The notes under the pieces are model-generated. The model did no database searches, had not been told where the DNA came from, and was given only the letters and a program-made list of their open reading frames with translations. Both the position numbers and the translations under genes were made by a program. Below, one piece after another: positions 5,708 through 63,887 of a stretch of 64,000 bases of DNA. The stretch is from Candidatus Woesearchaeota archaeon. Its GTDB lineage: Archaea > Nanobdellota > Nanobdellia > Woesearchaeales > GW2011-AR4. The stretch spans positions 7,317 through 71,316 of the forward strand of contig JAGVXV010000016.1 of assembly GCA_018303625.1 (NCBI GenBank). The letters are read 5' to 3'. Every line of letters begins with the position of its first letter. Position 1 is the first letter of the stretch.

Positions 5708-6016
5708 ATGCAGAAAGCGAGAATAAAGCTGGTAAGTGTGGACATAAGCAAGATTAATGATGTGTGCAGTTACATTAAGGATATAGCTGAAAAAACCGGG
5801 GTTGACATGAGGGGCCCGATACCCTTGCCGACAAAAAGGCTGAAAGTCACGACAAGAAAAAGCCCGGATGGCGAAGGGACTGCAACCTGGGAAAGATACG
5901 AGATGAGAATCCACAAAAGGCTTATTGATTTGGGCCTGGATGAAAGGGCCTTAAGGCTTGTTATGAGGGTGCCTATTCCTGAGGGCTTGAACATTGAGAT
6001 TGAGATGATTGAGTAG
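5708..6016 (+). CDS. rps10: Ribosomal protein S10
   Basis: 102 aa, [12 protein letters not shown]...[10 protein letters not shown]...HKRLIDL pattern of S10/S20e; follows EF-1alpha as in archaeal str-like clusters. Confidence 0.9.
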
Positions 6017-6585: not shown

Positions 6586-6594
6586 GTTTTATAA
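6586..6594 (+). promoter_or_regulatory. TATA-like box (ttttataaa) ~27 nt upstream of the 6620 RNA 5' end
   Basis: Archaeal TATA consensus at the expected distance from the start of the tRNA-like RNA. Confidence 0.4.
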
Positions 6595-6619
6595 ACATCT
6601 TGAAAATACAAGGCCCTAT

Positions 6620-6797
6620 GCCGGGATCGCATAACTCGGTATTGCACAGATCCTTTTGGAGTGTAAGCCTGGAATTATGCGAACAGCTCAGCCTGGCCCG
6701 AAAGGGCATCTGGGTTCAAAAAGCGCCTTGCTTTGGCATAGAGCTTTGCTTGTTGCCTGACTTAACACAAGGCGCCTTGAAAGTCCCAGTCCCGGCG
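6620..6797 (+). ncRNA. tRNA-like structured RNA, unassigned (candidate multi-intron class-II tRNA, or tRNA-derived RNA)
   Basis: 5' half GCCGGGA-TC-GCAT-AACTCGGTA-TTGC is near-identical to the D-arm of tRNA-Ser(CGA) at 8693. 3' end has a variable-arm-like GCCC-GAAA-GGGC, T-stem CTGGG, TTCAAAA..[~60 nt]..GAAAGT CCCAG, acceptor TCCCGGC, discriminator G, then T9 terminator. A canonical anticodon arm could not be resolved by eye. Confidence 0.45.
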
Positions 6798-6806
6798 TTT
6801 TTTTTA
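6798..6806 (+). terminator. Oligo-T archaeal terminator after the tRNA-like RNA
   Basis: ttttttttt immediately after the 3' acceptor strand. Confidence 0.5.
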
Positions 6807-6839
6807 ATTTTTAGGAAAGTTATTAGAGGGTTGGTGAAT

Positions 6840-7499
6840 ATGGAAACTAAAAAAATGAAAACAATTTTATTTTTGCTTCCTACATACAAATATATCAGCT
6901 CCAGATGTTTTGTATGCTTTTCTAAATTCTTTTTCAATATAAAAAAACATTACAATGTGAAAATGAGTTTGTGCGAGGGAATGTATATCACATTAGCAAG
7001 GAATAATCTCTCCGAGAAGTATACAAGCCTTGACGAACAACAAAAAAAGGAGATTGATTTGGTAGTATGGATGGATGATGATGTTGTATTTGGCATGCAG
7101 CAGGTTATAGGCCTAATAGAAAAATTTGAAAGCACGGGATTAGATATGCTAAGTGCATTATGCTTTTCCAGGTATAATAAAGAGCCCATGGCGTATACTT
7201 TTGACTTTAAAGAAAAAAGGCCGATAATACCATTGGAAAATATCCGCAATACGGGCATTGTTAAATGCGATGCTGCTGGTTTCGGTTTCTTGGTTATGAA
7301 ACCCGAAGTCCTTGACAAGATGCATGCCTCATTAGGCAAATGGATGTTTAAGACGCCTGTTATGCCCCATGAAGAATTCAAAGAAGGAATCTATATTGGA
7401 GAAGACATCTATTTTTATATGAAAGCAAAAGAATTAGGGATTACTATGGGTGTGGATACAGACATAATTATCGGGCATGATGGAGGGGTTATAGAGTAA
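6840..7499 (+). CDS. Putative glycosyltransferase (DxD-type)
   Basis: Start reset to METKK (GGTTGGTGA SD-like upstream) because the 6600 extension overlaps the ncRNA; VVWMDDDVVF DxD-like motif; GT-A-like composition. Confidence 0.5.
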   Translation: METKKMKTILFLLPTYKYISSRCFVCFSKFFFNIKKHYNVKMSLCEGMYITLARNNLSEKYTSLDEQQKKEIDLVVWMDDDVVFGMQQVIGLIEKFESTGLDMLSALCFSRYNKEPMAYTFDFKEKRPIIPLENIRNTGIVKCDAAGFGFLVMKPEVLDKMHASLGKWMFKTPVMPHEEFKEGIYIGEDIYFYMKAKELGITMGVDTDIIIGHDGGVIE

Positions 7500-8692: not shown

Positions 8693-8821
8693 GCCACGGT
8701 CGCATAACCCGGTAGTGCGGCAGTCTCGAAGCTTCAGGCTATGCATGATGTCCGCGAAATCGCAGATTTCGAGCTAACTGCTGTCCGCAAGGACTTCTCG
8801 GTTCAAATCCGAGCCGTGGCG
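8693..8821 (+). tRNA. tRNA-Ser(CGA), class II, with canonical 37/38 intron (~45 nt)
   Basis: GCCACGG-TC-GCAT-AACCCGGTA-GTGC-G-GCAGT-CTCGAA[intron, helix CTCGAA/TTCGAG]A-ACTGC-T-GTCC-GCAA-GGAC-TT-CTCGG-TTCAAAT-CCGAG-CCGTGGC-G. Confidence 0.7.
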
Positions 8822-59797: not shown

Positions 59798-59884
59798 GCG
59801 CGAGTGATCTAATGGCTATGATTGGGCCTTGCCAAGCAGAAATGCGAAAAGAGGCTCCCATCCGGGTTCGAATCCCGGCTCGCG
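59798..59884 (+). tRNA. tRNA-Gly(GCC) with ~15-nt 37/38 intron; 1-nt spacer after tRNA-Val (dicistronic)
   Basis: GCGCGAG-TG-ATCT-..-TGAT-T-GGGCC-TTGCCA[agcagaaatgcgaaaag]A-GGCTC-CCAT-CCGGG-TTCGAAT-CCCGG-CTCGCGC-A. Confidence 0.7.
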
Positions 59885-59904
59885 CATTTAATTTTATTTT
59901 TGAT

Positions 59905-60114: not shown

Positions 60115-60216
60115 GGGCCCGTAGCTCAGCCTGGTTAGAGCGACGGTCTTATATGGCATCGCTCTACGCAGCTCTAAGTGAGCCGTAGGTCGAGAGTTCA
60201 AATCTCTTCGGGCCCA
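60115..60216 (+). tRNA. tRNA-Ile(UAU) with ~27-nt 37/38 intron
   Basis: GGGCCCG-TA-GCTC-AGCCTGGTTA-GAGC-G-ACGGT-CTTATA[intron]A-GCCGT-AGGTC-GAGAG-TTCAAAT-CTCTT-CGGGCCC-A; anticodon TAT. Confidence 0.65.
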
Positions 60217-61468: not shown

Positions 61469-61616
61469 GCTCCCGTGGTGTAGTCCGGTCTGAAGAAAGT
61501 CCATCACATGATGGTTGTTCTTTCGGGATAACCAATCATTTCGGATTTTCGATCCGAAGACCTGGGTTCAAAGAAGATAAGGTCCATCCTGACTTTAGAA
61601 AGTCCCGGCGGGAGCA
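61469..61616 (+). tRNA. tRNA-Glu(UUC) with ~43-nt D-loop insertion and ~27-nt T-loop insertion
   Basis: GCTCCCG-TG-GTGTAGTCCGGTC[tgaagaaag...ataacc]AATCAT-T-TCGGA-TTTTCGA-TCCGA-AGAC-CTGGG-TTCAA[..]AGT-CCCGG-CGGGAGC-A, then T7. Confidence 0.6.
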
Positions 61617-62219: not shown

Positions 62220-63693
<1,474 letters not shown>

Positions 63694-63770: not shown

Positions 63771-63887
63771 GGGCCCGTAGCTCAACCGCAGAGCGCTGCC
63801 CTTGCACGAAGCAATTCGATGAAAGGCAGAGGCTTCGGGTTCAAAATTAAGGCCCAAGGGCTTTAGATGAAAGTCCCGACGGGTCCA
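63771..63887 (+). tRNA. ITS tRNA-Ala(UGC), G3:U70, with 37/38 intron plus T-loop insertion
   Basis: GGGCCCG-TA-GCTC-AACCGCA-GAGC-G-CTGCC-CTTGCA[cgaagcaattcgatgaa]A-GGCAG-AGGCT-TCGGG-TTCAA[aattaaggcccaagggctttagatgaa]AGT-CCCGA-CGGGTCC-A. Confidence 0.65.

Follow-up and report, generated by a model that had tools for sequence, protein, structure and literature searches.

The 178-nucleotide (nt) segment at 6620–6797 of a 64-kilobase window of DNA from a Woesearchaeota (DPANN) archaeon (contig JAGVXV010000016.1; the window is the whole stretch analysed) is very probably a functional tRNA-Ser(GGA) gene interrupted by three protein-spliced introns. The assignment is made from the sequence. What is shown below is the exon/intron structure and its uniqueness, together with its conservation and genomic setting. 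Removal of the introns leaves exons of 30, 8, 31 and 14 nt, which join to give an 83-nt class-II product. When the spliced sequence was submitted to ARAGORN, a flawless cloverleaf was returned and typed as tRNA-Ser(gga), 83 nt. The product has a 7-base-pair (bp) acceptor stem, a 5-bp Watson–Crick anticodon stem (CAGGC/GCCUG) closing the loop CUGGAAA, a 4-bp variable arm and the T-loop UUCAAAU. No stem contains a mismatch, and U8, G18G19, U33, A37, the T-loop and G73 are all kept. G73 and a long variable arm serve as identity elements of archaeal serine tRNAs; here they are present as G73 and the arm GCCC-GAAA-GGGC, together with the anticodon GGA, which reads UCC and UCU codons.

The anticodon arm is rebuilt from separated pieces. 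CUGGAAU/A at RNA positions 50–56 is a perfect Ser(GGA) anticodon loop heptamer. The 5′ strand of the stem is formed by CAG (28–30) and GC (48–49), giving CAGGC, and its partner GCCUG (72–76) lies directly before the variable arm. No 3′ stem strand is found beside the loop because the 15-nt intron 2 follows it. The position of intron 3 was assigned by comparison: the T-loop insertion is sited as in the tRNAs at 61469 and 63771 (UUCAAA↓...GAAAG↓U, where arrows mark splice sites), placing the intron at 59/60. An earlier reading of the same DNA (the first-pass annotation) had suggested, among other options, a Ser- or Leu-type tRNA with an intron inside the anticodon stem. This was correct in kind, in that the gene is a tRNA-Ser(GGA) with a 17-nt intron after CAG (29/30); the second intron (37/38) and the loop CUGGAA had gone unnoticed. 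The only anticodon pairing seen at that time, CAGAT/ATCTG, does indeed overlap the T-stem, as was said, because the AT of CAGAT is already intron. Used as the anticodon stem, CAGAU/AUCUG costs both the variable arm and the T-stem. Two further candidates were rejected. An alternative D-arm prompted by an 8-bp helix of the predicted fold, GCAU(10–13)/AUGC(58–61) with a 31-nt D-loop intron, leaves a remainder without an anticodon stem, and a Leu(CAG) reading has the loop CUCAGCC without a flanking stem.

Within the stretch from the acceptor to the T-stem, all removals of one or two segments of 8 nt or more were enumerated. A candidate was kept if it had a D-stem, an anticodon stem of 5 bp, U33, a purine at position 37 and a variable region of permitted form. 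The sole survivor is the 29/30 plus 37/38 model, present as two variants one base apart at intron 2: 6675–6689 (37/38, loop CUGGAAA) or 6676–6690 (38/39, loop CUGGAAU). For intron 1, no other placement restores the stem CAGGC/GCCUG. When the tRNA-Glu gene at 61469 is passed through this filter, it yields about two thousand solutions; it is thus not intrinsically strict, and the uniqueness obtained for tRNA-Ser(GGA) is meaningful. The two variants are equal from sequence alone, since a 7-nt direct repeat, AGCCUGG (6666–6672 and 6690–6696), brackets intron 2. The 37/38 boundary is preferred because the spliced relatives described below all read CUGGAAA. The repeat may also bear on the origin of intron 2. 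The coordinates of the model are collected in Table 1.

Table 1. Coordinates of the tRNA-Ser(GGA) gene, its parts and signals, the 16S-complementary block of intron 3 and the other tRNA genes of the window
Feature	Position	Strand	Description
tRNA-Ser(GGA) gene	6620..6797	+	178 nt; four exons and three introns; CCA not encoded
Exon 1	6620..6649	+	Acceptor 5′ strand, U8 C9, D-arm (GCAU AACUCGGUA UUGC), A26, C27 A28 G29; as in the ARAGORN cloverleaf
Intron 1	6650..6666	+	17 nt (AUCCUUUUGGAGUGUAA); tRNA position 29/30; RNA 31–47
Exon 2	6667..6674	+	8 nt, GCCUGGAA; G30 C31, C32 U33 G34 G35 A36 A37
Anticodon GGA	6671–6673	+	Within exon 2
Intron 2	6675..6689	+	15 nt (UUAUGCGAACAGCUC); canonical position 37/38; RNA 56–70
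Exon 3	6690..6720	+	A38, GCCUG stem strand, variable arm GCCC-GAAA-GGGC AU, T-stem CUGGG, T-loop UUCAAA (54–59)
Intron 3	6721..6783	+	63 nt; T-loop position 59/60; RNA 102–164
Exon 4	6784..6797	+	U60, T-stem CCCAG, acceptor UCCCGGC, discriminator G73
TATA-like box	6588..6595	+	TTTATAAA; centre about 28 nt upstream of 6620; read from sequence
Oligo-T tract	6798..6812	+	TTTTTTTTAATTTTT; likely archaeal terminator; read from sequence
Anti-16S block	6745..6767	+	UUUGCUUGUUGCCUGACUUAACA; inside intron 3; invariant 16-nt core GUUGCCUGACUUAACA at 6752–6767
16S target	63244..63266	+	UGUUAAGUCAGGCAACGAGCGAG; positions 1025–1047 of the window's own 16S; includes hairpin CCUG-UUAAGU-CAGG
Other tRNA genes	8693–8821, 59798–59886, 60115–60216, 61469–61616, 63771–63887		All with introns

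The outer parts of the gene are those of a tRNA. The acceptor strands GCCGGGA (6620–6626) and TCCCGGC (6790–6796) pair over 7 bp and are followed by the discriminator G at 6797. The D-arm, GCATAACTCGGTATTGC, is identical at 15 of 17 positions to the D-arm of the tRNA-Ser(CGA) gene, which lies at 8702–8718; two matches of this quality are found in the window, with 0.09 expected by chance. The variable hairpin (GCCC-GAAA-GGGC) and the T-arm, with stem CTGGG/CCCAG and its 63-nt insertion, complete the set. The first-pass annotation had named each of these elements, together with a TATA box and an oligo-T terminator belonging to the gene, and all are present. The distance of the TATA-like box from the tRNA agrees with the usual archaeal promoter spacing, and orthologues have similar upstream boxes (TTTATAAAC in loci L005 and L094). 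Archaeal transcription ends at T-runs, which is the source of the terminator reading; the run consists of eight T (6798–6805) followed by AATTTTT. A 299-residue open reading frame (ORF) drawn across the tRNA gene (6600–7499, + strand) is an artefact of upstream extension; the gene call in the source contigs begins at 6840, past the oligo-T tract.

Standard finders fail on the unspliced gene, in keeping with the earlier remark that it could not be folded as a cloverleaf. ARAGORN in default mode reported neither tRNA nor transfer-messenger RNA (tmRNA) in the window. The Rfam tRNA model, which finds three other tRNAs and the 16S rRNA elsewhere in the window, gave no match at 6620–6797, even at E ≤ 10 on a 301-nt slice. 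The covariance-model search that had been called for was also run more widely: 4227 Rfam families were compared with the locus (at gathering thresholds and at E ≤ 10) and nothing was returned except a noise match to STnc420 (E = 9.1). No other family, whether signal recognition particle (SRP) RNA, RNase P RNA or tRNA-Sec, was matched.

The splice motifs were assessed from minimum free energy (MFE) folds. Intron 3 has a near-canonical bulge-helix-bulge (BHB) motif of the hBHBh′ form, in which a 4-bp helix separates two 3-nt bulges and further helices flank them. Next to the T-stem, the fold contains the 3′ bulge AGU (6782–6784), the helix UUCAA/UUGAA, the 5′ bulge AAA (6720–6722) and an 8-bp inner helix, GCGCCUUG/CAAGGCGC. 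A cut after the second bulge base on each side leaves the T-loop UUCAAAU, and the terminal helix of the intron covaries among 32 related genes. Intron 1 has the relaxed HBh′ form. Its 4-bp helix GCAC/GUGU is extended to 6 bp, UUGCAC/GUGUAA (6642–6647/6661–6666); the 5′ site lies in a 3-nt bulge, AG↓A (6648–6650), the inner hairpin is UCC-UUUU-GGA and the 3′ site, AA↓G, is exactly 4 bp from the bulge. One strand of this helix is taken from the D-stem (its 3′ strand), which non-canonical introns commonly do. At the intron 2 site of L005 there is a proper helix, UCAG/CUGG, with a CC↓A bulge. We note also a perfect 8-bp complementarity between 6627–6634 (UCGCAUAA; U8–C9 and the 5′ strand of the D-stem) and 6675–6682 (UUAUGCGA; where intron 2 begins). 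This helix is the dominant element of the MFE fold; chance would produce about 0.2 of its kind. A 5-bp analogue occurs in L190 and none in L004 and L005; the helix might order the splicing steps, or it may be incidental.

The position of the gene provides further context. The local order is EF-2, EF-1alpha, S10, a 70-residue membrane ORF and then tRNA-Ser(GGA). The S10 gene (5708–6016) is found with identical sequence on aquifer metagenome contigs, and its nearest genomic relatives are Woesearchaeota (DPANN) bins. Among the loci fetched for comparison (L numbers), a tRNA-Ser(GGA/UGA) gene comes after S10 in archaea that include Thermococcus, Methanobrevibacter, Pacearchaeota and Woesearchaeota. 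The arrangement is widespread in archaea, and it pointed to a serine tRNA before the fold was solved. In further S10-linked loci (L209, L213, L215–L218) S10 has no adjoining tRNA-Ser.

Relatives of the gene were collected by a metagenome scan, which returned about 40 loci from aquifer and sediment samples and an unrelated gut gene. With the window, L004 and L005 there are 32 unique tRNA-Ser(GGA) genes (L084–L201 among them). The scan pattern fixed 12 of the 16 core bases of a block in the T-loop intron (discussed below) and left the other four bases, and the loci found independently, unconstrained; all 32 genes of this set have the 59/60 intron. Each gene has between one and four introns (L130, L134, L116 and L143 are examples of such genes), at sites that include the acceptor/7–8 region, the D-loop, the anticodon stem (29/30 among them), 37/38, the variable arm and 59/60. 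All relatives read CCUGGAA. After splicing in silico, by alignment to an intron-poor member and removal of the insertions, ARAGORN recognised tRNA-Ser(GGA) in 29 of the 32. The exons are common to these more than 30 Woesearchaeota relatives and the introns vary in presence, position and sequence, as expected of orthologues.

Individual relatives bear directly on the model. L004 and L005 were found only through their S10 genes (93% and 91% identical) and have the same exons, CAGGC-CUGGAA[intron]A-GCCUG. In both the CAGGC strand is uninterrupted, and a D-loop intron takes the place of the 29/30 intron. L190 and L116 share the architecture of the window gene: the 29/30 intron is present, its AGA bulge is kept and the inner helix is UAAC/GUUA rather than UCC/GGA. 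Such compensation is what a genuine intron, removed by splicing, should show. Some introns of the relatives form sequence families, for example a D-loop intron of about 40 nt, GGCGAGGUUC..CCUCACACYGCAGGAAAU. To judge by the sequences, the varied sites and these intron families point to rapid gain, loss or transposition of introns.

Several observations weigh against the assignment of a functional three-intron gene. The intron 1 motif is only of the relaxed type and has no outer helix, and its formation needs the D-stem to be unfolded. Intron 2 lacks a clean BHB, its central helix being only CUG/CAG (3 bp) and its 3′ bulge, CUC↓A, being 4 nt; it is the least secure part of the model, and the motif does not establish either its exact boundaries or its efficient removal. 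A second, uninterrupted copy of tRNA-Ser(GGA) could also exist elsewhere in the genome, the window being what was covered. The poor intron 2 motif, the presence of three interruptions in one gene and the failure of the standard finders would all fit a decaying, non-functional pseudogene, which has accumulated insertions and whose transcript is never processed to a working tRNA. We regard this as very unlikely. Decay would hardly leave a spliced product free of stem mismatches that keeps U8, U33, G18G19, the T-loop and G73, and an identical gene is found in independent assemblies (L001–L003, L138 and L188). The exons are conserved over the 32 relatives while the introns diverge or move; the gene retains its own predicted promoter and terminator and its conserved place after S10; and multi-intron tRNAs are the norm in the window. 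The earlier suggestion of a pseudo-tRNA or tRNA-derived regulatory RNA therefore fails on the flawless spliced cloverleaf and its conservation in many relatives.

We also considered a tRNA-like regulatory or structural RNA (a reduced SRP RNA, RNase P RNA, tRNA-Sec or tmRNA-like RNA) and a permuted or split tRNA, and hold these to be almost certainly wrong. The unspliced 178-nt RNA is very stable (MFE −79 kcal/mol compared with −55.6 ± 4.3 for shuffled sequences; z = −5.4), and the 8-bp helix from the D-stem region to intron 2 lies outside the cloverleaf, both of which could speak for some other structured RNA. This helix, however, is not conserved in L004 and L005, with about 0.2 such helices to be expected by chance; no Rfam family matches the locus beyond the E = 9.1 noise, and all class-II tRNA-Ser features are present after splicing. 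A permuted gene, which had also been proposed, is contradicted by the four colinear exons, which lie in one 178-nt unit with one predicted promoter and one predicted terminator.

Taking the locus as a tRNA-Ser(GGA) gene, we infer the following route. Its conjectural elements are that the gene is transcribed, which enzymes act, in what order the introns are spliced and where exactly intron 2 is bounded. Transcription would start from the gene's own TATA-box promoter and end at the oligo-T tract, giving a precursor with three introns of the BHB type, at 29/30 (anticodon stem, 5′ strand), 37/38 (anticodon loop) and 59/60 (T-loop). The archaeal splicing endonuclease would cleave in the bulges and an RNA ligase would join the four exons. 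The expected product is the 83-nt class-II tRNA, to which CCA would be added after splicing.

Both non-canonical sites, 29/30 and 59/60, are documented intron positions (PMC4090602). The closest parallel to the overall architecture is provided by multi-intron tRNAs of Thermoproteales, such as tRNA-Pro(UGG) of Pyrobaculum islandicum with introns at 25/26, 37/38 and 56/57. As here, one canonical and two non-canonical protein-spliced introns are combined, the motifs are BHB or relaxed HBh′/hBH, and the genes are missed by finders (PMC4090602). The present gene differs in belonging to a DPANN (Woesearchaeota) archaeon, in its combination of 29/30, 37/38 and 59/60, and in that the positions differ even between very close relatives. 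Within DPANN, pre-tRNA-Cys(GCA) of ARMAN-2 (Candidatus Micrarchaeum) has an hBH intron exactly at 59/60 (PMC5829648). The tRNA and the lineage are different, and a conserved rRNA-complementary cargo is not reported for ARMAN-2 (PMC5829648). DPANN archaea are reported to have many disrupted, unpredicted tRNA genes and incomplete predicted sets, both linked to endonucleases with extra loops; enzymes of relaxed specificity are likewise reported in DPANN (PMC5829648).

Intron 3 contains a block complementary to 16S rRNA. It was first noticed as a stretch, GUUGCCUGACUUAACAC, identical in the window, L004 and L005, the remaining intron being unalignable. Read as its reverse complement, this stretch agrees with 63243–63259 in the 16S gene of the window at all but one position; matches of this quality would number 0.13 by chance. 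The gapless intron–16S duplex extends to 23 nt (6745–6767 with 63244–63266) and includes three G·U pairs, and the longest run in 300 shuffles was 17. Its Watson–Crick core of 16 nt is an exact complement of the organism's own 16S and also fits the more complete 16S gene that this organism has on L203. The target segment falls in the conserved 16S stretch ...CCUGUUAAGUCAGGCAACGAGCGAG..., which we take to correspond to about 1088–1110 in E. coli (helices 35–37). RNAduplex gave −70 kcal/mol for intron and 16S compared with −46 ± 3 for shuffled sequences; long interior loops are allowed in this calculation and the value is supportive only. In predicted folds of the intron UUGCC lies in a hairpin, and GACUUAACA, the 3′ half of the block, is unpaired with a probability of about 0.9.

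The core is 100% identical in the 32 unique relatives compared with 38% identity for the remaining intron, a set shaped by the scan pattern noted above. The three loci that were found independently of the block give 100% for the core and 31% for the remaining intron. In the block-independent sample of tRNA-Ser(GGA) genes, the block is present in the T-loop intron of four (the window, L004, L005 and L207/L208) and absent from that of L211/L212; eight further genes have no T-loop intron. Since the L211/L212 intron lacks it, the block appears to be cargo and not a requirement for splicing. Complementarity to rRNA is not a general property of these introns. The comparison covered the tRNA-Glu, tRNA-Ala and tRNA-Ser(CGA) introns of the window, those in the T-loop of L009, L017 and L020 and, in the relatives, those of the D-loop and at 37/38; none of these has a Watson–Crick match of at least 12 nt to its own organism's 16S or 23S rRNA.

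In the most likely reading of the block, which we infer from complementarity and conservation, excised intron 3 would pair in trans with 16S rRNA or its precursor; the block may thus be a trans-acting antisense RNA. A fuller version of this proposal strikes us as possible rather than probable. Here the excised, probably circularised intron would be a stable trans-acting antisense RNA, its exposed GACUUAACA seeding a 16–23-bp duplex with the universally conserved GUUAAGUCAGGCAACGAG of the 16S 3′ major domain, and it would act as a box-less factor resembling a small nucleolar RNA (snoRNA).

Three other explanations of the block, which taken together we would rate only a little below one half, are that it is a cis element for precursor folding or splicing, a degenerate box C/D guide or an inert relic of an rDNA fragment. 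A cis role would account for the predicted pairing of the 5′ part of the block (UUGCC) within the intron. The 59/60 intron of L211/L212 sits in the same tRNA without the block, however, so that splicing there does not need it. Pairing of the block with the anticodon stem was rejected, as the stem varies (CAGGC, CAAGC, CAACC, CAGCC) and the block is invariant. A degenerate guide would suit the presence in the block of the box D consensus, CUGA, and the fact that tRNA-Trp introns are known hosts of C/D guides (PMC7994747). A C/D small RNA would need a C box (RUGAUGA) and a D box near its ends that form a kink-turn, and a guide of 10–12 nt that stops just upstream of box D or D′. No conserved RUGAUGA was found in the alignment of 32 introns; UGAUGG in one intron subclass is part of the terminal helix, which covaries. 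CUGA occurs only within the 16S duplex, and pairing runs 7 nt past it. We therefore rejected a box C/D or H/ACA guide in intron 3, there being no conserved C box or kink-turn partner and the ACA being inside the duplex. A relic is suggested by the fact that the DNA of the block equals the 16S gene read in reverse complement, but a neutral relic predicts neither of two observations: the core is invariant over 32 relatives in introns that otherwise diverge, and the three deviations from a perfect complement in the 5′ extension of the window's block are all C-to-U and keep G·U pairing.

Other tRNA introns offer partial comparisons for an antisense role of the block. The C/D guide of the tRNA-Trp intron (Haloferax, and sR50 of Pyrococcus) is likewise a conserved antisense element within a tRNA intron (PMC7994747). 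It has C/D and C′/D′ boxes, guides methylation of its own tRNA and is located at 37/38 (PMC7994747), whereas the present block has no C box, lies in a 59/60 intron and is complementary to 16S over 16–23 nt, including and passing CUGA. Free tRNA introns of yeast are described as excised and acting in trans by pairing with mRNAs (PMC13079951), which resembles the role proposed here. They differ in being eukaryotic, in targeting mRNA coding sequences and in their 37/38 position (PMC13079951); the role of the archaeal block is a proposal from sequence. A parallel with snR55/snR40 at the homologous 18S segment was rejected, as these yeast RNAs target helix 34 (PMC5464676). In the open-access literature we found no precedent for tRNA introns complementary to rRNA.

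Some further observations concern the other tRNA and rRNA genes of the window. All six tRNA genes contain introns. That of tRNA-Ser(CGA) (8693–8821) has a 37/38 intron; tRNA-Glu(UUC) (61469–61616), missed by both Rfam and ARAGORN, has one or more D-region introns and a 30-nt T-loop intron; and tRNA-Ala(UGC), in the 16S–23S spacer, is interrupted at 37/38 and also, by an intron of 29 nt, in the T-loop. The T-arm exon of tRNA-Ser(CGA), (A)UUCUCGGUUCAAA (8794–8807; also in L017), is complementary over 13–14 nt to 23S positions 99–112 (L203). This is probably chance, about 0.1 such matches being expected over all comparisons made. The window's 16S gene (62220–63691) is 1472 nt long and scores 1277 bits with Rfam, and the copy of the same population on L203 (5751–7302, − strand) is 1552 nt long and scores 1424 bits. 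Segments of 18 and 62 nt are absent from the window copy and 13 other positions differ. The missing segments match the conserved model, which suggests that the shorter gene is a variant with deletions or the result of a collapse in the assembly. On L203 a gene with a Pfam 23S_rRNA_IVP domain (PF05635) is located at 1952–2350, just downstream of the 23S rRNA gene and beyond the end of the window.

The gene itself is one more multi-intron archaeal tRNA, a known class, in a phylum with known under-prediction. As both ARAGORN and the Rfam tRNA model miss it, automated annotation would wrongly report the tRNA-Ser(GGA) isoacceptor as missing; the earlier remark that a Ser or Leu isoacceptor might otherwise appear absent was apt. 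It provides a worked case of how the incomplete tRNA sets of DPANN archaea (PMC5829648) resolve, and its more than 30 relatives could be used to train intron-aware predictors. Two features go beyond the routine: the conserved anti-16S block of the 59/60 intron, and the unusual fluidity with which intron positions change from one close relative to the next. One tRNA that in very close relatives has one to four introns at many sites is a natural series for the study of intron gain and loss. On the question of why archaeal tRNA introns persist, the anti-16S block offers a candidate function that can be tested directly and is different from the one known case of the C/D guide in the tRNA-Trp intron. 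If intron 3 does act on 16S rRNA, it would have a role in small-subunit folding or processing, or would couple tRNA maturation to ribosome biogenesis, in this DPANN clade, and there would be a concrete reason for the retention of a non-canonical tRNA intron.

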